Shown here in pieces: positions 23,943 to 49,288 of a stretch of DNA of 64,000 nt. Positions within the stretch are counted from its first letter, which is position 1. Each line of letters starts with the position of its first letter. This DNA is from a virus (Duplodnaviria > Caudoviricetes). The notes under the pieces were generated by a model. The model saw only the letters and a program-made list of their open reading frames with translations. It searched no databases and had not been told where the DNA came from. The stretch spans positions 96,193-160,192 of IMG/VR virus record IMGVR_UViG_3300026549_000038, one strand, 5' to 3'. The position numbers were made by a program, and so were the translations under genes.

Positions 23943-24025
23943 ATCAATTATTTGGTATATTTAATCTAATAATAAAATATGAAGTGATGAAAAGAAAAAT
24001 GACTATTTTTGTACATTGATATTAA

Positions 24026-24280
24026 TTACCAAATTCTACAATATATAGCACCAGAAACGTGGAAGAGAGATTCACCCACTTTGAGCTTCTCTAGTTTTTT
24101 AGCCCAGTCCTCGTCCTCTCCAAAGTCATTAACTAAATCTTTATAACTATTCATACCATAAACCCCGACGAGACCAGAGTTATCATCATAATACATGTAT
24201 CCATATTTTCCGTTTTCATCGACTTCGATCATTTCCTGATTAGAGTATCCTTCTTTAATGTAACTTTGAATATTTTTCAT
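24026..24280 (-). CDS. small protein with capsid-targeting-like leader
   Basis: MKNIQSYIKE leader; C-terminus similar to 29965..30336. Confidence 0.7.
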   Translation of the reverse strand: MKNIQSYIKEGYSNQEMIEVDENGKYGYMYYDDNSGLVGVYGMNSYKDLVNDFGEDEDWAKKLEKLKVGESLFHVSGAIYCRIW

Positions 24281-24301
24281 TTTTTATTAATTTAATTTAA
24301 T

Positions 24302-24904
24302 TTAATATTCTATATTTATAATAACACTTTTCGATTTAAGATATTTCTGCACATTTTCTATTGTCGGCTCCATGTCTTTTTTTGGTTTTTCTTTTGAGTG
24401 TCTTCCGTTGTAAGCCCAGTAGAAAAATTTACATTCTCTCGGTGCTCCTTCAATTGAATTTAAAAGTCTGTTATGTTGACATTCAAAAACGCGGACTTTC
24501 TTTGGGCACCCTTCAAGACTAGTAAGACAATCACAACAATTTATTGAGAGCCTACTATCAAACTCACAATCAGGTGTGAACACTGTTGTAAGATCAACAC
24601 ATCCCGACGATCTTAAATCTAAACATCTTGCCTTATCGCCAACGAATTGGGAGATTTTATATTTAAGTCCTTTTTCCGGAAACTTAAATATTGACACTCC
24701 ACTCACATTCGAGGGGCAAGTAATCACATATCCTTTCGAATCCAAATCCAATCGGACACCAAGACGCTTCAGTTCACGATATTGATATATGTATTTAGCC
24801 AGTTCATCTATAGCCTCTTGCTTCAACACATTTTCTGTATTTTTGACTATATCGACATTTCCGCTAAAGATACTTTCGTCTATATACTCTTTAATATCCT
24901 TCAT
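24302..24904 (-). CDS. LRR-like protein with capsid-targeting-like leader
   Basis: MKDIKEYIDESIFS; LTSLEGCP, LNSIEGAP repeats. Confidence 0.75.
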   Translation of the reverse strand: MKDIKEYIDESIFSGNVDIVKNTENVLKQEAIDELAKYIYQYRELKRLGVRLDLDSKGYVITCPSNVSGVSIFKFPEKGLKYKISQFVGDKARCLDLRSSGCVDLTTVFTPDCEFDSRLSINCCDCLTSLEGCPKKVRVFECQHNRLLNSIEGAPRECKFFYWAYNGRHSKEKPKKDMEPTIENVQKYLKSKSVIINIEY

Positions 24905-24940
24905 GATTTGGATCTTATTTTTTATATAATAAACGCCATA

Positions 24941-25852
24941 TTATTTTACATAAATATAAAGATATTCGTCGTGTTTATGTGGGGTTTTGTTGTTGATGTG
25001 TACGGAGCGGTTTTTTGAGAGTTTGAAAGAATATTGCGGAGTTGGTTGTGATTTCATCAGGTCTTCTCTCATGACCAAAGCATAGACCATACAAGAATCT
25101 TTCGCTAAAAATTTATTATACAAGCACGTTAAAAATTCATCAAACTCATCTGTACACGTGAATCTCCCACACTCATATATTTCGAGATTATAATATGGTG
25201 GACAGGTGAACATAACGTTAAAATCTTCTTGTGGAGTATATGATCTCGCATCTTCATTGTGGAGCTCAGCATTCCAAAAATCAAAATAAGACTTTATGCT
25301 ATCTACCTTATCATATGTGTGATACGAGAGATCGTTGTATATGTACTTTTTGATTTCTGTCGAGCCAATCATCCTATGCCCCCAACCCCCGCACGGATCA
25401 AACACAATCATCTGTTTCATGTTGATCCCCACATTATCTTGAATCCATTGATAGACCCACTTGCAGAGTTGTGGATTAAATCCTCCATAACCGTAGTAAA
25501 TCGCGCTTTTTTTGAATCCAGAGAGTATATCATAAGTATTAAGTTGATCCGGGGTTTTATTCAGGTAATACATGCGATTTTCGAGGATTTTCTTACGGAT
25601 GTCCAAATCATACCACATTGTCTTTTCAACACAGAAATAATTATCTTGTTGAAAAGCCTTCACTATCTTATTTCTGTTACAGTTCAGCGTGAGTTGTCCC
25701 CGAGGGTGATCGAGATACCAAAAGAATTCCTGGTGTAGTTCTTCGCTAGTAGGACTCCACCAGAGTTCTGGGTCGATATTCGGAAACATTTTTTCAAAGT
25801 TCGTAGTTACGTCTTCGTCTGTCAAAAAATGTTTTATATTACTATTGTTCAT
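24941..25852 (-). CDS. DNA amino-methyltransferase (m6A/m4C type)
   Basis: SAM-binding FDPCGGWG, catalytic FTCPPY; start overlaps upstream nuclease stop by 11 bp. Confidence 0.85.
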   Translation of the reverse strand: MNNSNIKHFLTDEDVTTNFEKMFPNIDPELWWSPTSEELHQEFFWYLDHPRGQLTLNCNRNKIVKAFQQDNYFCVEKTMWYDLDIRKKILENRMYYLNKTPDQLNTYDILSGFKKSAIYYGYGGFNPQLCKWVYQWIQDNVGINMKQMIVFDPCGGWGHRMIGSTEIKKYIYNDLSYHTYDKVDSIKSYFDFWNAELHNEDARSYTPQEDFNVMFTCPPYYNLEIYECGRFTCTDEFDEFLTCLYNKFLAKDSCMVYALVMREDLMKSQPTPQYSFKLSKNRSVHINNKTPHKHDEYLYIYVK

Positions 25853-27140
25853 ATAAAAATATATTTAAAACTTCTTTAAGATTTGTGGAGAATACCTCTT
25901 TCCAGTTCAATTTATGTTCTTTAACCCAGAGCCGTTTCTTAGGATCTCGGATCGTCCAAGTCTCTATGGCATTATCATAGAAGTCGCTGTGTTTGTCTTT
26001 CCAGCTTTGAAGGGTCTTCTGGTCTTGAGCCGATTCCGGATCGAACGGGTGATGACCATGAACCCAACTGCCTTGTATCTCAAGATAAAGGTTCTTATCC
26101 GGAAAATAAAAGTCACAGTTAAAAGGATACTCTTCGCTTCTGTATTGATACTTATAGTTTATATTATTCGAATCAAGCCAGTCTTTAAATTCCTTCTCGA
26201 TCTTAGACGAGTTGAATGTCCCGTTGAGTTTTTTTGTCTCATAGGATTTCTTTTGAATTTCTGATTGAATGTGTTTTATATGTTCTTTATAATTATCTGT
26301 TTGAGAATATGATTCGGCGCCGTATCGTTCGAGATTGGTCTGTCTGATTTTAGATTTGATCTCTGAAGAAGCAAATGGGTTCTCAGCACCGTATCGTTCG
26401 AGATTGGTCTTCTTTGCCTTGGACTGCACAGTCTCGTTCTGCATAGGATTCTCTGTTCCGTATCGTTCGAGATTGGTCTGTCTGATTTTAGATTTGATCT
26501 CTGAAGAAGCAAATGGGTGAGAGACCCCGTAGTGTTCAATGCTTGTGGAGCGGATCTTTTCTTTAAAAGATTTTGTTTTGCTGTAGTGATCTACGCCGTA
26601 TGTGTCCAACAGGGATTCTTTAAAGTTTTGTCGCACAGTCTCGTTCTGCATAGGATTCTCTGTTCCGTATCGTTCGAGATTGGTCTTCTTTGTCTTAGAT
26701 CGCACAGTCTCGTTCTGCATAGGATTCTCTGTTCCGTATCGTTCGAGATTGGTCTTCTTTGTCTTAGATCGTATGGTGTAGTATTTTTCTTTAAAAATAT
26801 TATTGAACTCTTTGGTTTTAGAAAAGTTATCTACACCGTATCGTTCGAGACAGGACGTGCGCGACAGGTCTTTTTTGTTTGGGTCGTTGTTGGAACATCG
26901 TCTGCAGCAGTATTTGCGGTAGCCAACCGTACGATTTTCGAAAACAACCCTGCTACTGCAGACTCTACAGACCGGTCGGACATCTAAATTATTCTGAAAA
27001 CGATAGAGCCTCTCAGAGAACGAATCGCTGTCAGTATAATGAGTCATTAGGTATGAATAGAGTTCTGGATAGTTCCTTTGGAAGTATCTTGAGTCGATCG
27101 ATGGAAATTTTTTGTGTTTGAATTGTTCCAAATCCTGCAT
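25842..27140 (-). CDS. homing-type endonuclease: Zn module + TNLERYG repeats + Vsr/DUF559-like PD-(D/E)XK domain
   Basis: CRVC...YCCRRC; 23-aa repeats; CDFYFPDKNLYLEIQGSWVHG; likely start ATG27140 (MQDLEQF). Confidence 0.8.
   Translation of the reverse strand: MQDLEQFKHKKFPSIDSRYFQRNYPELYSYLMTHYTDSDSFSERLYRFQNNLDVRPVCRVCSSRVVFENRTVGYRKYCCRRCSNNDPNKKDLSRTSCLERYGVDNFSKTKEFNNIFKEKYYTIRSKTKKTNLERYGTENPMQNETVRSKTKKTNLERYGTENPMQNETVRQNFKESLLDTYGVDHYSKTKSFKEKIRSTSIEHYGVSHPFASSEIKSKIRQTNLERYGTENPMQNETVQSKAKKTNLERYGAENPFASSEIKSKIRQTNLERYGAESYSQTDNYKEHIKHIQSEIQKKSYETKKLNGTFNSSKIEKEFKDWLDSNNINYKYQYRSEEYPFNCDFYFPDKNLYLEIQGSWVHGHHPFDPESAQDQKTLQSWKDKHSDFYDNAIETWTIRDPKKRLWVKEHKLNWKEVFSTNLKEVLNIFLYEQ
26632..26771. 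repeat. perfect 69-bp tandem duplication (RSKTKKTNLERYGTENPMQNETV x2)
   Basis: CGCACAGTCTCG... starts at 26632 and again at 26701. Confidence 0.9.
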
Positions 27141-27184
27141 TATATTAATATAATGAAAGTCCAACATGTATTTATTAAATATAC

Positions 27185-27211
27185 AAAAAAAGACCTCAGA
27201 GAGGTCTTTTT
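27185..27211. terminator. intrinsic terminator after tail tube gene
   Basis: AAAAAAAGACCTC-AGA-GAGGTCTTTTT. Confidence 0.85.
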
Positions 27212-27238
27212 AAAAATCGGTAAGTATAAGTTGGGCGA

Positions 27239-27811
27239 TTATGCGTTGGTTTCGCTCCACCAGTCGCTTACGAAGCTTACGCTGACGTTGAAAGTTTCGC
27301 GAGACTCGTAATCGAAGCTTGATGTGACATCCTCAGGACCTTTAGACATCATAACGTCCTTCAACACGATATCTTGGTAAATATCTCCAACTCTGTTGGC
27401 AACTACAACCCTCATCCAATCAGCACAGTAATCTTTCTTCAGAACTTTCTCACCAGTACTGATATCATATCCGAGTTTTCCCCAAGCCTTCAAAAGCTTA
27501 TAAATGTAGTTGTCGATTCCGTTACGGAGGTTAAGAGAAAACTCTACAGTAATCTCTACTCGAGTCTGGTCAAGACCACTCTGAATGTAAGAACGGTCGG
27601 TTCCCATAAACCTCTGCTGGCTAACAGCAGGAACTTTATTTAAATTATTCAGACCATCAATCTTCAGAACATGCTCTGTAAGAATTGCTTCATCTTGAGC
27701 AAACTGACTACGAAGTGCCTCTGGGAGAGTAAAATACACTTCGAAGAGGTTTCGGTGTATAGGATCCCATTTGTTCACTCCTGCTTTACTATTTGTAATG
27801 TGTGGTAACAT
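27239..27811 (-). CDS. gp19: tail tube protein (T4 gp19-like)
   Basis: 190 aa; RNLFEVYF, FDYESRETFNVSVSFVSDWW C-terminus typical of tube proteins; own terminator. Confidence 0.75.
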   Translation of the reverse strand: MLPHITNSKAGVNKWDPIHRNLFEVYFTLPEALRSQFAQDEAILTEHVLKIDGLNNLNKVPAVSQQRFMGTDRSYIQSGLDQTRVEITVEFSLNLRNGIDNYIYKLLKAWGKLGYDISTGEKVLKKDYCADWMRVVVANRVGDIYQDIVLKDVMMSKGPEDVTSSFDYESRETFNVSVSFVSDWWSETNA

Positions 27812-27935
27812 AATTTTATCTCGTTTATTTAATTAAATAAATAATAAATGTATAGATCAAAAAGTTGTAAACAGTTTTAATTAAAAACTTGTAACTTATT
27901 TATTATATTTATATGAAATATAATTTATATTTAAT

Positions 27936-29918
27936 ATGAAAATCCCAAAAATAGAAGAACTAGATTCCCCAAAGAAAATGGGAAGCCTATATTTGAAGAA
28001 ACACTACCCGGAATTTTACCAATACCTTTGTAACAAATATAAAGGTTATCCTATAAAAAAGACCACCGAACTTGTATACCTTTATTACAATGAATTGTCT
28101 GAACCACACAGGTGCCCGGTCTGTGACAAATACACCACATTTCTCGACTACAAAAGAGGATATCAAAAGTACTGTGGGCTCAAATGTTCTAATTCTGACC
28201 CGGAAGTCAAAGCCAAAAAAGACGCAACATCAATAAAGAAATTCGGAGTTGCTCACGCGGCTCAAAATGCGTCCATAAAAGAAAAACTCATCAAGACTTA
28301 CACTGAGAGACATGGTGGCATGGGCAACGCTAGTTCGGCCGTGCAGAAGAAACAGCAGGCCACTATGGAAGAAACTTATGGTCATAAACACGCCATGCAG
28401 AACCCAGAGATACTTAAGAAATCTCAAGACACTCTCGAGAGCCATTACGGAGTCAGAAACACTTTCAAATCGGATCAAATTAGAGAAAAAATTAAGCAGA
28501 CTAATTTAGAAAGATATGGAGTAGAATATGGTCTTATGGCAGAAGAAATTAGAGAAAAAATTAAGCAGACTAATTTAGAAAGATATGGGGCAGAATGTAA
28601 CTTGTGTTTGCCAGCAATGCGCGAGAAAATCCGAAGGACTAATATAGAAAAATACGGCTCGTCAGAACCGTTTAAAGCCAAAGACATTAAAGAAAAAATC
28701 AAACAAACCAATCTCGAAAGATACGGAGACGTTATTCCGATGAGAACCGATAACATAAAGAAAAAAGTCCAACAAACCAATCTCGAAAGATATGGAGTAG
28801 ACAACCCTTCTAAATCACAGGATGTTGTAAACAAAATAATTGAAATCAAACGAGCAGCTGCAATTGATAAAATAGAAGATTTGTTGGGATATACAGAAGA
28901 AGGGGATTGGATTCGTAAGTGTCCGCACCAGGGATGTAATAAGTGTAATGAAAAAACTTATATAATATCTCCCGAACATTATCGCACACGTAAAGCATCC
29001 AACACAGAGCCATGCACAAATATTCTTCCCGTTCAACAAGGAAGATTATCTGGTACGTCTATAGAATTGTTTGTAAGAGATGTGCTTGATAAAAACCATA
29101 TTGAATATATTACTAATGATCGTACAGTTCTAGAAGGTAAAGAACTTGATATATATATTCCAAAATATCGTCTTGCAATAGAATGTAATGGTATTTACTG
29201 GCATTCATCAGCATGGAAAGATGTTAAATATCACTTTGATAAATACATCAAGTGCGCCCAGGCTGGAATTCAACTGCTTACTATCTGGGAAGATCAAATA
29301 GTTAACAAACCAGAAATAGTAGAATCCATCATCTGTTCTAAATTGGGAATATATGATATTCATGTTGGTGCTCGATTATGTAGCGCACGTGAAATTCCAC
29401 AGAGCACAGCCAAACAATTCCTGAACAAATATCATCTTCAAGGTTCTGTAGTGTCTAAATATAATATAGGTTTATTTTACAAAGATGAACTGGTGTCTGT
29501 TATGACGTTCGGGAGAAAACGCAGGGCTCTTGGAAACAAATCTGCAAGACCTACAGAGTTTGAATTATATCGTTATTGCACAAAATCTGGTGTTCAAATT
29601 ATTGGCGGTGCCTCAAAATTATTGAAATATTTTATAGATCACTACAACCCGACTATCATCGAATCATTTTCCTCTAATGATATTTCAAACGGCTCTCTTT
29701 ATGGATCTCTTGGTTTTTCCAGGGTCAGCGAAACATATGGTTCTTATTGGTACATAGATGAAAACCTAAGAAGATATCATAGGTTTAACTTTACCAAAGG
29801 AAAACTAGTGAAAGAAGGAGCAGACCCAAACTTATCAGAATCTGAAATCATGATGAACTTAGGATATACGAGGATTTATGATAGTGGTCAGACTAAATGG
29901 ATTTTAAAATTACATTAA
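27936..29918 (+). CDS. Hef-like homing endonuclease: Zn module + repeats + PD-(D/E)XK domain + C-terminal GNAT-like domain
   Basis: ELDIYIPKYRLAIECNGIYWHS; HLQG, ELYRYC, GGASKLLKYF, LYGSLGF, IYDSG. Confidence 0.8.
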   Translation: MKIPKIEELDSPKKMGSLYLKKHYPEFYQYLCNKYKGYPIKKTTELVYLYYNELSEPHRCPVCDKYTTFLDYKRGYQKYCGLKCSNSDPEVKAKKDATSIKKFGVAHAAQNASIKEKLIKTYTERHGGMGNASSAVQKKQQATMEETYGHKHAMQNPEILKKSQDTLESHYGVRNTFKSDQIREKIKQTNLERYGVEYGLMAEEIREKIKQTNLERYGAECNLCLPAMREKIRRTNIEKYGSSEPFKAKDIKEKIKQTNLERYGDVIPMRTDNIKKKVQQTNLERYGVDNPSKSQDVVNKIIEIKRAAAIDKIEDLLGYTEEGDWIRKCPHQGCNKCNEKTYIISPEHYRTRKASNTEPCTNILPVQQGRLSGTSIELFVRDVLDKNHIEYITNDRTVLEGKELDIYIPKYRLAIECNGIYWHSSAWKDVKYHFDKYIKCAQAGIQLLTIWEDQIVNKPEIVESIICSKLGIYDIHVGARLCSAREIPQSTAKQFLNKYHLQGSVVSKYNIGLFYKDELVSVMTFGRKRRALGNKSARPTEFELYRYCTKSGVQIIGGASKLLKYFIDHYNPTIIESFSSNDISNGSLYGSLGFSRVSETYGSYWYIDENLRRYHRFNFTKGKLVKEGADPNLSESEIMMNLGYTRIYDSGQTKWILKLH

Positions 29919-29945
29919 AAAAGAGCCCTTGTGAGCTCTTTTTTT
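29917..29945. terminator. bidirectional intrinsic terminator
   Basis: AAAAAAGAGC...GCTCTTTTTTT between convergent genes. Confidence 0.8.
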
Positions 29946-29964
29946 GATCATTTAAAGAATATAC

Positions 29965-30336
29965 TTATCTCTGCAGACAAACCCACACATATCCATAAGG
30001 ATCTGTATAACTCTCGCCTGGTTCTAGGCTATCTATTTCTTCTCCTTCAGTCCACCAATCGTTTATGCCAATAGCAGAACACATATTGTCAAAGCTTCCG
30101 TCGTCTTCACCATTTCTGACATCGCTCATATCAAATTGTCCCATATCAATAGTTATAAAACTGATTGCTTCTTGTCCTGGGTGTTTTCCTGTATCAATTT
30201 TTAGATACTGGCTTCCATTTGTACGAGTGCCAATAGGCAGTCTCTTGAGAACTGATCTCTTTGTATATCCCTTTCCTTCTTCAATAGCAGCTTCATTGAC
30301 AGCCGATTTATTCAAGTAATCTTTAATATTTTCCAT
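29965..30336 (-). CDS. small protein with capsid-targeting-like leader
   Basis: Likely start ATG30336 (MENIKDYLNKSAVNE); ATTATTATT upstream. Confidence 0.7.
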   Translation of the reverse strand: MENIKDYLNKSAVNEAAIEEGKGYTKRSVLKRLPIGTRTNGSQYLKIDTGKHPGQEAISFITIDMGQFDMSDVRNGEDDGSFDNMCSAIGINDWWTEGEEIDSLEPGESYTDPYGYVWVCLQR

Positions 30337-30378
30337 AAATAAAATGATTAATTTATTAAAAAATAATAATATCAATAT

Positions 30379-30438
30379 TCAATTTTTAATCCATTCCCAG
30401 CGTATATGCCCACTGTCATATACTTTTAGGTATGGAAT
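30379..30438 (-). pseudogene. orphan 3' end of a Hef-like endonuclease gene
   Basis: Reads IPYLKVYDSGHIRWEWIKN*; compare LPYWKIYDSGHIKWYKKLL* at end of 47573..49288. Confidence 0.85.
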
Positions 30439-30439
30439 C

Positions 30440-30487
30440 CGAATTTATGATAGCGGACAAACTAAATGGCCCTTAAAGATAAGTTAA
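30440..30487 (+). pseudogene. orphan 3' end of a Hef-like endonuclease gene
   Basis: Reads RIYDSGQTKWPLKIS*; compare RIYDSGQTKWILKLH* at end of 27936..29918. Confidence 0.85.
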
Positions 30488-30498
30488 CATTTATTTCA

Positions 30499-30528
30499 CG
30501 GACTAAATGGGTATCGAAGGTTATTTAA
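30499..30528 (+). pseudogene. possible third orphan endonuclease tail
   Basis: Reads RTKWVSKVI*; GACTAAATGG identical to the 27936-gene tail, with similar stop spacing. Confidence 0.45.
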
Positions 30529-31747
30529 TAAACATATAAAGATACTCTCCATTCTTCGCAGTCGCCCCATTCGTAAGATGAATTGCGCGATTTTTCGAAA
30601 GTAAAAACTTCTGATCTGGCTTATGAATATTTTCATCTATAAGATTTTCTTGAATCACTAAAGCAAAAACTTTTGCAGGACCTGTCCAAAATACTTCAAA
30701 TAACCTATTCATAAACAGATCGAAATCTGTTCTTGATGAGAAATCTCCACAAGGATAAGATTCAAGATTAAAATAAGGAGGACACGTAAACATAACATCA
30801 TAATCTTCTTCTGGTATCCACCGAAGACAATCTTCGTTGTGAAGCTCCACATTAAAAAACTCAAAGTAATCCTTTATAGATTGCACCCCATTATATGTTG
30901 GGCGAGATAAATCATTATAAATGTATTTTTTAATCTCTGTTGATCCAATCATTCGGTGACCCCAACCACCACAAGGGTCGTACACCACCATATCATCCAT
31001 CTTGATACCTACGTTTTCTTCTATCCAAGCATACACCCATTTACAAAGCTGGGGGTTAAAACCACTATAACCATAATGTATTGCGGATTTTTTGAATCCA
31101 CTCAATATGTCATATGTATTGAGTGTTTCAGGCGTTTTGTCTAGGTATTTGAGCCTGTTGAGAAGAATCTTTTGTTTAATTTCCGGCTCTTGCCAAAGCT
31201 CTTTTTCTCTCTTATAGAAAGTATCCTGCTGGAAGAACTTGACAATTTTATTCTTATTACAGCGGAGGGTAAGTTCCCCAACTGGATGATCCAGATACCA
31301 AAAAAATTCATCATAGAGTTCTTCTCGTGTGAGATTCCAATGAAGATCCGGATCAACGTTTGGAAATGAGAGTGTTAGTGATGTTGACGTATTATTCGCC
31401 TGTCTCCACTTTTGTACAACCTTGCTGAATTGCATGGGGTGTTCGGTTCCATAATGAGATAAGGATGTTTGTTTCTTCAGAAGTTGAACTTGAGAAGATC
31501 GTTGTGCACAGGATTTAGAACAATACATATGGTAACCCTTTTTAGAATTTATAAATTTAACAGGATTACCACAGATGCAACAGGTTGGTGTTGTTGTTAT
31601 ATTGTTGTAATACCAATACAGTCTTTCTTGAAATTTCAAGTTCGGATATACGTTCAAAAGATGTTGATAGAAGTCGGGATATTTTTGTTTTACCTGATCT
31701 TCGCGGCAACTATATTTATTTAATTTATTATAATCAGGAACATCCAT
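30521..31747 (-). CDS. DNA amino-methyltransferase fused to homing-nuclease-type N-terminal Zn module
   Basis: YDPCGGWG, FTCPPY; N-terminal YPDFY...ERLYWY...CCIC...YCSKSC; paralog of 24941..25852. Confidence 0.85.
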   Translation of the reverse strand: MDVPDYNKLNKYSCREDQVKQKYPDFYQHLLNVYPNLKFQERLYWYYNNITTTPTCCICGNPVKFINSKKGYHMYCSKSCAQRSSQVQLLKKQTSLSHYGTEHPMQFSKVVQKWRQANNTSTSLTLSFPNVDPDLHWNLTREELYDEFFWYLDHPVGELTLRCNKNKIVKFFQQDTFYKREKELWQEPEIKQKILLNRLKYLDKTPETLNTYDILSGFKKSAIHYGYSGFNPQLCKWVYAWIEENVGIKMDDMVVYDPCGGWGHRMIGSTEIKKYIYNDLSRPTYNGVQSIKDYFEFFNVELHNEDCLRWIPEEDYDVMFTCPPYFNLESYPCGDFSSRTDFDLFMNRLFEVFWTGPAKVFALVIQENLIDENIHKPDQKFLLSKNRAIHLTNGATAKNGEYLYMFIK

Positions 31748-32792
31748 ATATGATTTCTTTATATTTTTGAATAACTACATCCAAGTCCGTTGAAAAAACT
31801 TCAACCCAGTTGAGCTCGTGTTCTTTAGCCCATTGTCGTTTTGTGGGGTCACGAACAGTCCAGGTCTCTATGGCGTTGTTGTAAAATTTTGTTTTCTTTT
31901 TAACCCATTCATTTAATATGATTTGATCTTGGGGTGAATCTGAATTATATGGGTGATCATTATGAACCCAGCTACCTTGTATCTCAAAATAGAGATCTTT
32001 ATCAGGAAAGTAAAAGTCACAGTTAAACGGATAAGAATCAGAACGATATTGATACTTATAATTTATATGATTATCATCTAACCATTTTTTAAACTCCTGT
32101 TCAATTTTGGATGTGTTAAATGTTCCGTTTTTCTTTTTAGTTTCATATATTTTTTTCTTATATTCGTCTGTCTGTGAATAGCTATCTACTCCATAACGTT
32201 CCCTTACAGTGTTCCGGAGTTTTTCTTTAACCCCCTTTTGAATGGATCGGACATACTCCAGACATTCTGGATTTTTCATAGGATTAGAAACACCATATTT
32301 TTTCTTACATGTTTCTTCGTATTTCTTTTTATTTACATCTGAAGCATTACCACAACCTCCATACAGTTCGATGTTTCTTAAGTTCGACTTTCTTTTAACT
32401 GATTCGTTTTGCATGGCATTGGGTACTCCGTATTTCTCTACGCAAGATTGTTGCATTCGATCCCTGACTGTTTTCGAAGCAGCTGGTGATGAACCTCCAT
32501 ATTTTTTCTTACATGTTTCTTTTGTCTTGATTTTTTTATCAGTATCAGAATTAGAACACTTTATACTACAATACGCCGTGTATCCGTATTTGGGATTGAT
32601 GTAGTTAGTAGGCTTACCACATATCTTGCATGTTGGATGTACAATTATATTGTGCAGATACCAATAAACTCTTTCTTTCCAAGGAAGCTCGTCTGGATAT
32701 TTATCCATTATAAACCTATAAAATTCAGGAAAATGTTTTTTAACACAAATCTCTCGGTTATATTTTTGCAAAGTTAGATCAGGAATTATCAT
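31734..32792 (-). CDS. homing-type endonuclease: Zn module + repeats + Vsr/DUF559-like domain
   Basis: CKIC...YCSIKC; TCKKKYG repeats; CDFYFPDKDLYFEIQGSWVH; paralog of 25842..27140. Confidence 0.8.
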   Translation of the reverse strand: MIIPDLTLQKYNREICVKKHFPEFYRFIMDKYPDELPWKERVYWYLHNIIVHPTCKICGKPTNYINPKYGYTAYCSIKCSNSDTDKKIKTKETCKKKYGGSSPAASKTVRDRMQQSCVEKYGVPNAMQNESVKRKSNLRNIELYGGCGNASDVNKKKYEETCKKKYGVSNPMKNPECLEYVRSIQKGVKEKLRNTVRERYGVDSYSQTDEYKKKIYETKKKNGTFNTSKIEQEFKKWLDDNHINYKYQYRSDSYPFNCDFYFPDKDLYFEIQGSWVHNDHPYNSDSPQDQIILNEWVKKKTKFYNNAIETWTVRDPTKRQWAKEHELNWVEVFSTDLDVVIQKYKEIIYGCS

Positions 32793-32862
32793 ATCTAATT
32801 ATATAATAAATAAAAATAATGAAAAATTTAATTCATTATTAAAATTTTCATATAAATTGAGT

Positions 32863-32897
32863 AAAAAAAGAGCCTGCACTTTTGTGCAAGCCCTTTT
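32863..32897 (-). terminator. intrinsic terminator after major capsid gene
   Basis: Minus-strand hairpin GGGCTTGCAC-AAAA-GTGCAGGCTC followed by T7. Confidence 0.8.
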
Positions 32898-32918
32898 CTT
32901 TCAATCCTTTTGGTTTGA

Positions 32919-34640
32919 TTAGATAACATCAACTCCGTCGCTGTCAACCATGAAGGTGAAGTATGACTGCTCTGGCCAGAAACCAGCGTCAACGATAGCA
33001 AATCTTGAGTTAACAAGAAGCTTCGGAGCCATAGTGCCTTCAGCGGTAATCTGAACGGTGTCAGCTAAGATATATGGCATGAAGATTACGCCCGGGTCGT
33101 TGCCCGTAGATTTTCTTCCGACACATATACGGCAGTCGTCCCAAGTCATGTAAGGGTCAACATAGAGGTTCAGACCTGCTACGGAACCAGCGAAATACAG
33201 ACTCTTGCTACCATCCTGTACAAGGGTGTTAGTCATAGGAGCGATTACAAATCCAGCTGCATCCTGAAGAGCAGACAGAATCTGAGTGTTAGTTACAACC
33301 CACTGACCTCTTCCCCAACGGCTTACGTTAGCGATAAGGTTAGCTGCTGCAAGAATACGGCTCATAACCCTTCTCTGAAGAGTGTGAGTGTTCTCAGCTG
33401 CGGTGTTCTGAGTAGCGTTCTTAACTGCGCCCCAGTTGGTAGCTGCATTAGTTCCATCGATGCCGATGAACTTCTTAGCTGCAGAGAAAGCAGACAGATT
33501 CTTGGTAGCTGCGGCACCAGCATTAGAGAAGTACAGGTTAAGGTCAACACCCTGATACTCTTTCTGGTTCTTAGCGTTGGTTACACCAAGACGGAATACT
33601 CTGTCGAGGATTCTGTTGTTGATTTCCTGAGAAATCTCGTTCTGCATAGCCTCGAGAACCTTTCCTACTACGTCAACTCCGTAAAGCGGCATATCCTGAA
33701 GCTGCTGACGAGTAACAGTACCAGTTACTTCATAAGCACCCATCTGAACGAGCTTAGTGAACATGCGTGCACCGATAGTGTTACCAACACCAGTCTCGTT
33801 CTGAGCCCTTGTCATAGGGTCATCACTTCCATTGAAGAAGTTACCGAATCCCTGAACGTGATCAGCGTTTCCTGATACGAGCTGAGGATCGCAAGCCTGA
33901 GCTGTCTGAGTACCGAGAACTGCAGATGCAGCGGTAGAAGACAAAGTTACGTTAGCGCTAAATACGTCAGCGATAGATACATCAGCGTTATCAGCAGCGT
34001 TACGAACTTTTACAACCTTAACGATCATACCGTTGTCGATACGGCTGAAACCAATGAAACTACCAGTGAATACACCAGCTGTACTAGTGAACACGATATC
34101 GTTACCTACAACGAAATCTGCTTTAGTCTTACCAGTAGCATATACAACATTGTACTTAACCTTAATATAAATAGGTTTGTTCTCTGCATCTGGACCAATA
34201 CCATCAACACCAAGAACTTCGTTTGCACGACCGGTCTTACCACCAGCATAAGGGGTATCCATGTAAGAAAGCATAGCCCAAGGGCCCTTTGAAGGGATAA
34301 CTGGAACGAGCTCAAGACCGATAGTCATAGCTGCGATTGTAAGAGCCATTGTCAGGGTTGACATTGGAATGTCACCTGAACCAACCTTATTTGTATAGAA
34401 ATCAGCTGCACCTGGGCCAGAAACCTCAGGATTCATAGGATTTCCCATACCCATAGTATTCAGAGGAGTAGCATAAATGTTCTGACTCACGTTGTTAGTA
34501 TTAGGCTGAAGGCCTTCATATACCTCGTGGTTCTTTGCATACTCACTCATCCAAGCAAGCTTACTAGCGTTCTCAACGCCGAGCTCTTCTTTGATAATCT
34601 GTGACCACTTCTGATCACCGTTTTCTGTAATGAACTTCAT
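32919..34640 (-). CDS. gp23: major capsid protein (T4 gp23-like)
   Basis: IGLELVPVIP, TRQQLQD, EISQEINNRIL, RWGRGQWVV, LYVDP, GVIFMPY, EGTMAPKLLVNSRFA; high-expression codon bias. Confidence 0.95.
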   Translation of the reverse strand: MKFITENGDQKWSQIIKEELGVENASKLAWMSEYAKNHEVYEGLQPNTNNVSQNIYATPLNTMGMGNPMNPEVSGPGAADFYTNKVGSGDIPMSTLTMALTIAAMTIGLELVPVIPSKGPWAMLSYMDTPYAGGKTGRANEVLGVDGIGPDAENKPIYIKVKYNVVYATGKTKADFVVGNDIVFTSTAGVFTGSFIGFSRIDNGMIVKVVKVRNAADNADVSIADVFSANVTLSSTAASAVLGTQTAQACDPQLVSGNADHVQGFGNFFNGSDDPMTRAQNETGVGNTIGARMFTKLVQMGAYEVTGTVTRQQLQDMPLYGVDVVGKVLEAMQNEISQEINNRILDRVFRLGVTNAKNQKEYQGVDLNLYFSNAGAAATKNLSAFSAAKKFIGIDGTNAATNWGAVKNATQNTAAENTHTLQRRVMSRILAAANLIANVSRWGRGQWVVTNTQILSALQDAAGFVIAPMTNTLVQDGSKSLYFAGSVAGLNLYVDPYMTWDDCRICVGRKSTGNDPGVIFMPYILADTVQITAEGTMAPKLLVNSRFAIVDAGFWPEQSYFTFMVDSDGVDVI

Positions 34641-47572: not shown

Positions 47573-49288
47573 TTATAATAATTTTTTATACCACTTAATG
47601 TGACCGCTATCGTATATTTTCCAGTAAGGTAAAGAAGCCATAATCTGGGATTCCGTATTGTGTTCTATATCATACCCCATTTGTTCAAGCTTTCTTTTGG
47701 TGAATGATGTTCTATGATATCTGTGCAAGTCGTTTTTATTTATATACCAATATGCTCCTGTTATTTTTCCATCGCTCGAGAATCCCAAACTTTTATAAAG
47801 TCCACCATTGCTAATATCATTAGATGAAAACGATGTGATAGATTTTGGGTTATATACATTAATAAAATAACTCATAAGTTTCCCAGCTGCTCCTACCACT
47901 TGAGTATTCAATTTTGTACAAAATCTGGTCAATTCCCAATCAGTCTTGCTGTTTCCGGTATTTCCGGAAAGTTGTGATCGTTTATTAAAAGTCATAATAC
48001 CCACACATTCTTTATCCTTAAATATACCTAAACTAACCTTAGCTGGACATGTTCCTTGTATGTGGTTGCTGTTTAAAAATTCCGTTTTTGTTTTTGAATC
48101 CACTTCGAGAATCTCACAATTCCTGGCGTATATTCTATTTTTATATATTCCTAATTTAGAAAGTAATATTGACTTAATAATCTCAGAGTGTATCTTCACC
48201 TGATCTTCCCAGATAGTTAACAATTGAATATTTTTATCTCGGCATTGTTTAAATTTGTTAATATGATAACTACTGTTTTTTAACTCAGTGGAATGCCAAT
48301 AACACCCATTACATTCTATCGCAAGTTTGTGACTTGGTATGTATATGTCAATTTCTCCTGCGATGATGTCTCTTACATTACAGCGATAATTTATATCATA
48401 TTCATCTAATATATCTCTTATAAAAATTTCTATACTTGATATGTTTGGAGAAACTGGAAGTAATTTTGTACAAGTTTCAATACCGTTATAAATCCTGTGG
48501 AAATATACTTCAGAATTAATATTATATTGTTTGTTGGTGCATTTATCACAGCTTGGATTTGAACATTTTATGGTATATATTGTATTTCCATCAAGCATTT
48601 GAATATCAATGACATTTGGATATTTGTTGGTAATTTTATTTTTTATAGAATTTATATAATTATCAAATATTTTAGGATTAGGATGCGCACTCCCATATCT
48701 TTCGAGATTTGTCCGTTGAATTTTTTGTTGTATCTGCTCCGAGGCACCGGCCCAGTTAACTCCATATCTTTCGAGATTTGTCTGTTGAACCTTTTTCTTT
48801 ATGTTGTCAGTCCTCATTGGAATAATGTCTCCATATCTTTCAAGATTGGTTTGCGCTGTTTTTTCCGCTAACTCTTTTGATGCAAACCCTATACCCCCGT
48901 ATTTTTTTAAATGAGTATCTTTAACTTTTTTATTAACCCCCGGGATCTGAGATATATTAGAAACTTCATATTTTGTTTTAACTGTGGATAATGTTCTTTT
49001 TATTCTCTCAGGTGAAGACTCAGAGCATTCCCGACTGCAAAATTTTTTATAACCCTTATTAAAATTTACATATTTGGTTGGTTTACCACACATCTCACAA
49101 ACCGGTGCATGATTTATTTGATTAAAATACCAGTATAATTTTTCAGAAATAGTTGTTAAAAAATTATATTTATTGTTTATAAATTCATAAAAGTCTGGGT
49201 AATTTAATCTAATAAATTTATCTTGACATGCGTGCTTTGAATTTTCGGATATAAATGCTTTTGTTGGTTGGCTTATTTTGTGAGTCAT
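47573..49288 (-). CDS. Hef-like homing endonuclease with C-terminal GNAT-like domain
   Basis: CEMC...FCSREC; TNLERYG repeats; EIDIYIPSHKLAIECNGCYWHS; HIQG, ELTRFC, GAAGKL, LYKSLGF, IYDSG. Confidence 0.8.
   Translation of the reverse strand: MTHKISQPTKAFISENSKHACQDKFIRLNYPDFYEFINNKYNFLTTISEKLYWYFNQINHAPVCEMCGKPTKYVNFNKGYKKFCSRECSESSPERIKRTLSTVKTKYEVSNISQIPGVNKKVKDTHLKKYGGIGFASKELAEKTAQTNLERYGDIIPMRTDNIKKKVQQTNLERYGVNWAGASEQIQQKIQRTNLERYGSAHPNPKIFDNYINSIKNKITNKYPNVIDIQMLDGNTIYTIKCSNPSCDKCTNKQYNINSEVYFHRIYNGIETCTKLLPVSPNISSIEIFIRDILDEYDINYRCNVRDIIAGEIDIYIPSHKLAIECNGCYWHSTELKNSSYHINKFKQCRDKNIQLLTIWEDQVKIHSEIIKSILLSKLGIYKNRIYARNCEILEVDSKTKTEFLNSNHIQGTCPAKVSLGIFKDKECVGIMTFNKRSQLSGNTGNSKTDWELTRFCTKLNTQVVGAAGKLMSYFINVYNPKSITSFSSNDISNGGLYKSLGFSSDGKITGAYWYINKNDLHRYHRTSFTKRKLEQMGYDIEHNTESQIMASLPYWKIYDSGHIKWYKKLL

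Follow-up and report, generated by a model that had tools for sequence, protein, structure and literature searches.

A viral methyltransferase gene bearing the N-terminal module of homing-endonuclease-like nucleases, and the possible role of that module as a tether

Genes of the locus and the N-terminal module of P0001

The stretch of DNA analysed here (64 kb, referred to throughout as the window) is the terminal part of a 160-kb IMG/VR record which is ~81% complete. The window has a GC content of ~36% and was found to carry genes for a T4-type major capsid protein, portal, sheath, prohead protease, family B DNA polymerase and sigma factor; this T4-type structural and replication gene set indicates a large uncultured (T4-like) myovirus. 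No matches were obtained against 50,697 deposited phage genomes, either in a megablast search with window positions 24000-33000 or in a tblastn search with the protein of interest (designated P0001).

P0001 is encoded by a 408 amino acid open reading frame on the minus strand (30521-31747). Its first 127 residues (31367-31747) comprise an N-terminal module (residues 1-113; 31409-31747, minus strand) and a flexible linker (residues 114-127; 31367-31408, minus strand), and these are followed by a methyltransferase core (residues 128-408; 30521-31366, minus strand). The gene order at the locus is capsid gene, class A nuclease, P0001. The class A nuclease (31734-32792, minus strand) is predicted by homology to consist of the same module, repeats and a short PD-(D/E)xK-like head, and its stop codon is overlapped by the start codon region of P0001 by 14 nt. 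A paralogous methyltransferase without the module (designated P0002; 24941-25852, minus strand) was identified by alignment to P0001, and its start overlaps the end of a further module-bearing class A nuclease (25842-27167, minus strand; identified by BLASTP and family search) by 11 nt, so that both methyltransferase paralogues begin within the final codons of a class A nuclease gene. Such adjacency of a nuclease and a methyltransferase gene, of the kind looked for in type II restriction-modification systems, was also found in the related loci L008, L009-L012, L014 and L018.

Two other nuclease genes in the window carry the module and belong to class B, in which the repeat array is longer than in class A. 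The gene at 27936-29918 (plus strand; family search and comparison with 3r3p) was found to encode the module and a DUF7487 array together with a second zinc site, a nuclease resembling Vsr/EDxHD enzymes and a Mom-like domain, while the second class B gene lies at 47573-49288 (minus strand; BLASTP and family search). A fifth module-bearing nuclease, also of class B (612 aa; modules 45-47% identical), is located outside the window at G000:C1:32050-33888 (minus strand), giving five homing-endonuclease-type genes with the module in this phage genome. The class B nuclease domain matched I-Bth0305I (3r3p) with an E value of 8e-7, and the Mom-like (PF25680) domain of three class B genes gave a sub-threshold match. 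Architectures of the class B type were found in 441 cultured-phage records, where they are often annotated as homing endonucleases, and the Mom-REase fusion architecture in jumbo phages has been described by Iyer et al. 2021 (PMC7824862).

Residues 1-135 of P0001 were compared with all open reading frames of the window using BLASTP. The earlier note had claimed that the first ~127 residues of the methyltransferase align with the N-termini of all four nucleases in the window, and this proved correct, with matches to the N-termini encoded at 31734-32792 (E 2e-23, 39% identity over 118 amino acids), 47573-49288 (E 6e-19), 27936-29918 (E 6e-16) and 25842-27167 (E 1e-12), compared to an E value of 0.15 for the best unrelated open reading frame. 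In the alignment of these N-termini the motifs quoted in that note were in register (YP(D/E)FY, ERLYWY, CxxC, GYxxYC, xxxC and one HYGxxHPM repeat) and all conserved positions were kept, P0001 having 10 out of 10 near-invariant module positions (P24, E41, P54, C56, C59, G71, Y72, C76, C80 and G100). Its statement that the methyltransferase at 24941 lacks the module was likewise upheld, as P0002 aligns with P0001 only from residue 119 of the latter onward and has 22 residues in front of its FPNIDP. Matches of P0001 to the nucleases were confined to residues 1-118, and no nuclease catalytic domain was found in P0001, residues 128-408 being the methyltransferase core.

The predicted zinc ligands of the module are C56, C59, C76 and C80 (31508-31582, minus strand), which have the spacing CxxC-x16-CxxxC, similar to that of TRASH/FCS fingers. 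Across an alignment of 35 modules C56 and C59 are invariant and C76 and C80 are at least 90% conserved. The module of P0001 ends in a single repeat (residues 91-106, KKQTSLSHYGTEHPMQ; 31430-31477, minus strand), which corresponds in the alignments to the first repeat of the DUF7487 array of the nucleases, where four or more repeats are present. The Pfam model for DUF7487 (PF24308) spans the array of repeats beyond the zinc ribbon of the nucleases, and P0001 shares the region upstream of the model together with the one repeat. The four window nucleases score 62-156 bits with PF24308, whereas P0001 falls below the gathering threshold because its lone repeat is too short for the model.

The module alone was modelled using AF2 with a pLDDT of 95.7, as three short helices, a small beta zinc ribbon (C56, C59, C76, C80) and two longer helices which include the single repeat. 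Modelling of full-length P0001 from a 38-sequence alignment gave two confidently folded domains (mean pLDDT 88.7) and, between them, a stretch predicted to be disordered (residues 114-123, pLDDT <50). The two parts differ in charge, with a pI of 9.3 for the basic module and 5.3 for the acidic core. In a Foldseek search of the PDB the module gave weak matches to MYND, TRASH and FCS zinc fingers (E of at least 0.4), no convincing fold was found among 48,161 chains searched using VIA (Z no greater than 2.5), and no solved DNA-binding fold resembling the module was recovered by either search. A sub-threshold match to zf-FCS_1 was observed in the paralogous nuclease at 47573-49288. The ligand pattern of TRASH/FCS/MYM-type fingers (CxxC...CxxxC) is thus present and conserved in the module, although the fold matches are weak. 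We infer that the module binds zinc and DNA, and the module with its repeat arrays is a candidate modular DNA-recognition scaffold.

The methyltransferase core and its family

The core of P0001 was assigned from Foldseek and VIA comparisons and from its homology to P0002, and is predicted to consist of a helical N-terminal subdomain followed by a class I SAM-binding Rossmann domain. The helical subdomain is ~100 residues long and is conserved. Motif I (DPCGGWG, residues 257-263; 30959-30979, minus strand) was located past strand 1, in the predicted SAM-binding loop, and motif IV (TCPPY, residues 321-325; 30773-30787, minus strand) past strand 4, in a predicted catalytic loop of the (D/N/S)PP(Y/F) type; the linear order in the core is motif I, then motif IV. 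In the AF2 model the two motifs are preceded by strands at residues 254-257 and 318-321, respectively. Among 38 aligned sequences, D257, P258, G260, G261, W262 and G263 of motif I are invariant, as are T321, C322, P324 and Y325 of motif IV, while C259 and P323 are each at least 90% conserved. D279, which the model places at the end of strand 2, is also invariant. The residue before PPY is cysteine, compared to the usual D, N or S.

The core matched many methyltransferases with a Foldseek probability of 1.0, and was superimposed using VIA on (D/N)PP(Y/F) amino-methyltransferases with Z scores of 13-16 (rmsd 2.5-3, 160-190 residues aligned). As modelled, the core is therefore a class I SAM-dependent amino-methyltransferase with the seven-stranded, Rossmann-like fold of that class. 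Its structural neighbours include enzymes acting on RNA, namely the tRNA m2G enzymes Trm14, TrmN and Trm11 (top by Z), METTL5 and RsmD, and enzymes acting on DNA, namely HsdM, PacII M and lmo1582. The Z scores of the DNA and RNA enzymes were tied within ~2 units, and the fold alone therefore does not fix the substrate of the core.

P0001 and P0002 matched no Pfam family at E values up to 0.1, including PF01555 (N6_N4_Mtase), and no usable family in NCBIfam or PADLOC. In a profile search of PDB sequences the best match was to a methylase of the PF01555 type, with an E value of 0.047. Among 49 more distant viral relatives, seven did match PF01555, with E values as low as 2e-23 and with the C-terminal half of the profile coming first, and look-alike clusters in the Atlas carry the automatic name N4-cytosine DNA methyltransferase, which is taken as a lead only. 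Circularly permuted methylases resembling M.MboIIA and M.MunI have been noted in jumbo phages (Iyer et al. 2021, PMC7824862). On the strength of the permuted PF01555 relatives, the cluster names and these published permuted methylases, the core is read, with moderate confidence, as an amino-methyltransferase producing m4C or m6A whose substrate is presumably DNA.

A total of 535 homologues of the core were found. The family is virus-only, is without a family name and is nearly absent from cultured phages; P0002 gave just 19 matches in the cultured-phage collection, all of them weak and partial, and the weak cultured-phage matches of the core are annotated as DNA methyltransferase or ParB-methylase. 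P0002 is 59% identical to the core of P0001 (E 7e-130). Cores that stand alone, as P0002 does, occur frequently, and the module is thus not required by the core.

Exchange of the module and conservation of the fusion

In two other lineages, L008 and L009-L012, the capsid gene is likewise followed by a class A nuclease and then by a fused methyltransferase, and the architecture of P0001 was found in P0004 (408 aa) and P0005 (410 aa) across 100% of their length. In L009 an extra DUF7487 gene of 541 amino acids (L009:2762-4387) separates the capsid gene from the pair of nuclease and methyltransferase, a presence/absence polymorphism which is typical for mobile endonuclease genes.

Comparison of the window with L008 at the DNA level gave identities of 94-100% for the capsid gene, 56-79% for the nuclease, 46-60% for the methyltransferase module and 91% for the core. 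Identity was found to jump from 46% to 91% at ~31386, within the linker and at the boundary of module and core. Judged from this identity profile, the boundary is a sharp recombination breakpoint. In the same comparison the cassette as a whole (window positions 30400-33171) appeared as a hypervariable island of 46-80% identity. It was also observed that the last 270 bp of the capsid gene drop to 80-89% identity from 94-100%; the identity boundary with L008 resembles the co-conversion/exchange boundaries found beside homing-endonuclease genes.

Protein trees of the core pair the window with L008 and those of the module pair L008 with L009, a conflict in keeping with the identity break at the junction. 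The possibility that the module of P0001 was swapped in from a nuclease gene was examined using a FastTree, in which it paired with a class A nuclease (support 86, ~89 columns), and an AU test, again over ~89 columns, in which a single clade of all three methyltransferase modules was not rejected (P =0.86); the module may thus be either a rapidly diverged orthologue or a replacement. Gene conversion between the modules of P0001 and its partner was considered and rejected, as they share 38-41% identity and group separately, each among its orthologues.

All three fusions keep the four cysteines and the aromatic core of the module. For the modules of L008 and L009, dN was 0.137 and dS was >2, and as this dS is saturated the resulting ratio of ~0.05 is just an upper-level indication of strong constraint on the module. 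Between the window and L008, dN was 0.53 in the module and 0.10 in the core, and dN/dS involving the window copy was unusable due to saturation of dS.

The history of the fusion was assessed in a quick, midpoint-rooted tree of the 120 best core homologues. The three short fusions formed one clade (support 93) which is nested within 38 stand-alone cores (clade support 97) and adjoins P0002, with the long fusions located elsewhere in the tree. The simplest history is therefore a single gain of the module in a module-less methyltransferase lineage.

An all-against-library search identified the module on 3,681 cluster representatives. Among the best 150 of these, ~53 had class B (Mom-like) heads, 26 had class A heads, 14 had the nuclease domain alone and 2 had a methyltransferase, the remainder being fragments or tandem-module proteins, and the type of head was scattered almost randomly over the module tree of these 150. 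The module thus occurs with three kinds of head, namely a Vsr/EDxHD-like nuclease with a Mom-like domain, a short PD-(D/E)xK domain and a methyltransferase. The earlier note had proposed that a single N-terminal chassis is swapped among catalytic heads; given the three kinds of head, their scatter on the module tree and the breakpoint at the junction, this reading is right, and more general than that note could see. Arrays of four to six tandem whole zinc modules, with or without a nuclease head, were also observed (P0123, P0124, P0136, P0190 and P0194).

The core in turn is joined to other partners. Among its 120 best homologues, 32 are fusions of 500-700 amino acids that end in the core, and the majority of these include a zinc/DUF7487 region. 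Of 49 relatives on IMG/VR viral contigs, 11 had the core fused to DUF7487 arrays, and LAGLIDADG, HNH, HTH and Ros/MucR modules were also found joined to it. LAGLIDADG and HTH regions precede a C-terminal methyltransferase core in L044:3894-5840, L070:2297-4867, L077:3567-5444 and L097:2721-5279, and two long DUF7487-methyltransferase fusions of 562 and 603 amino acids (37% identity) lie in tandem in L021:2159-5759. The order is reversed in P0053 and P0064, where the methyltransferase core comes first and the zinc module begins at about residue 385; these may be read-through products, or true fusions, of a methyltransferase-then-nuclease pair like that of L014. A stand-alone core in another lineage again adjoins two DUF7487 genes and a capsid gene.

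Proposed role of the module and related systems

The best overall explanation, to which we attach slightly better than even confidence, is that P0001 acts as a DNA methyltransferase on a tether and belongs to a mobile cassette of nuclease and methyltransferase. The core of 280 residues would be a SAM-dependent amino-methyltransferase related by circular permutation to the N6-adenine/N4-cytosine DNA methylases, joined through a disordered linker of ~15 residues to the 113-residue front module of a homing-endonuclease-like family. The basic module would hold the acidic core on DNA, and this tethering would bias where, or how efficiently, the core methylates; any effect of the module on methylation specificity is one that we infer, and a single repeat may not suffice for the recognition of a particular sequence. 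Translation of P0001 would follow directly on that of a same-family nuclease, the two genes forming a cassette beside the capsid gene. The fusion probably arose once among module-less methyltransferases and has been kept by selection, with the two halves recombining independently at the linker.

The earlier note went further, suggesting that the methyltransferase could be guided to the sites of the nuclease. On such a reading the pair would be a selfish cassette resembling a restriction-modification system, in which methylation immunises the homing site of the phage; this is the leading alternative, but an unlikely one. It is favoured by the presence of the module in both proteins, by the position of both paralogues directly behind a class A nuclease (with the 14- and 11-nt overlaps), by the recurrence of the pairing both among relatives and in a lineage further removed, and by the similar logic that Iyer et al. 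2021 (PMC7824862) propose for the Mom-REase fusions of jumbo phages. The modules lend the suggestion no support, however, and give weak indications against it. That of P0001 is 38-41% identical to the module of its partner and 31-47% identical to the nuclease modules of the genome, and contains one repeat compared to the four or more of the nucleases. Between the window and L008 the partner modules are 72% identical and the methyltransferase modules 51%, without co-variation, and methyltransferase modules group together and partner modules together, so that there has been no homogenisation. Where long fusions lie beside nucleases (L027 and L057) the chassis are 27-46% identical, and P0002 occupies a like cassette without any module. 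Recognition of one and the same sequence by nuclease and methylase is thus not supported by the module identity of 38-41% or the absent co-variation, as far as sequence comparison can speak to it. A stronger version, considered slightly less probable again, is that the pair is a restriction-modification system built wholly from homing-endonuclease parts, in which an exchangeable zinc/repeat chassis would address both cutter and methylase and a swap at the linker would re-address self-immunity; were this the case, the hypervariability of the cassette among phages that are nearly identical elsewhere would reflect an arms race between co-infecting phages.

The remaining alternatives concern the module or the core separately. 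The module could be a protein-protein or regulatory handle, pairing with the like-folded modules of the nucleases or with a common factor of host or phage, and thereby coupling, sequestering or competing with the nucleases; the (weak) fold matches closest to it are zinc fingers of the MYND type, a kind of module that mediates protein interactions, it occurs alone as short open reading frames and as up to six tandem copies, and P0001 is translationally coupled to a module-bearing nuclease. We regard this as doubtful, as the module is basic and elsewhere precedes DNA-acting heads and repeat arrays of the DNA-binding type, and as genuine DNA-binding scaffolds (LAGLIDADG, HTH, Ros/MucR) are fusion partners of the core in other proteins. 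Methylation of RNA (tRNA or rRNA) or another substrate, with a module unrelated to the choice of a DNA site, was judged improbable: although the tRNA m2G enzymes Trm14, TrmN and Trm11, with METTL5 and RsmD, stand among the top neighbours by Z, and neither P0001 nor P0002 matches a DNA-methylase family of Pfam, the scores of DNA and RNA enzymes are tied within ~2 units, sequence-related distant members match the PF01555 DNA methylases, and the family, found in viruses only, is physically linked with homing-endonuclease modules. The module might finally be a neutral relic, the decayed 5' end of a homing-endonuclease gene which was joined in frame and persists for its start codon and translational coupling. 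The retention of a nuclease-type N-terminus from the very first residues (M-x-x-P-D), the one repeat left and the far greater divergence of the module than the core between the window and L008 (dN 0.53 compared to 0.10) would fit such a relic. This is very improbable, however, since the frame is intact in three lineages which differ at more than half of the module residues, neither the four cysteines nor any other conserved position of the family has been lost, dN between L008 and L009 is 0.137 with dS saturated, and the module fold is predicted confidently by AF2. A one-off relic under no selection, the case which the earlier note had named as fatal to its own proposal, was rejected on account of the fusion and its synteny in two other lineages and of purifying selection.

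Engineered zinc-finger methyltransferases, which are artificial and combine C2H2 arrays of known specificity with C5-cytosine methylases, have in common with P0001 the proposed principle of a linker-tethered DNA-binding module that biases a methylase. If the module does steer the enzyme, P0001 would represent a natural and recurrent counterpart of such engineered targeted methyltransferases, and would link homing endonucleases with restriction-modification, selfish elements which are usually treated apart. In homing endonucleases of the I-TevI type and in NUMOD systems, heads and DNA-binding modules are likewise separate, linker-joined and shuffled, with a zinc finger in the connecting region; P0001 derives from other sequence families, and the heads of I-TevI/NUMOD systems are nucleases only. 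F-CphI was examined as a relative and rejected, as it is an EndoVII-type enzyme and unrelated. The term DUF7487 was found in no paper, the present architecture was not found described in the literature on fusions of homing endonucleases and methyltransferases, and no paper was found to describe the recurrent joining of the core family to homing-endonuclease scaffolds (DUF7487, LAGLIDADG, HNH).

Of systems known in phages, the Vsr/EDxHD homing endonucleases, including the Mom-REase fusions (I-Bth0305I, 3r3p; PMC7824862; PHROG 3339, 'homing endonuclease'), have the same N-terminal module as P0001, which differs from them in having one repeat and a methyltransferase head and in lacking the nuclease and Mom-like domains. 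The DNA methylases of PF01555 (M.MboIIA/M.MunI-like) and their permuted phage forms (PMC7824862) share with the core the class I fold, a GxG motif I and the PP(Y/F) part of motif IV; P0001 and P0002, whose activity is predicted, differ from them in the CPPY form of motif IV, in the helical subdomain of ~100 residues and in having no Pfam match, and they belong to a family with hundreds of viral members for which there is no Pfam model. The added domain in the ParB-methyltransferase fusions of phages, such as gp77 of Listeria phage B054, is ParB, with no homing-endonuclease link; these proteins also combine a PF01555-type methylase with a separate DNA-binding domain, and B054 gp77 was recovered as a weak match of the core.
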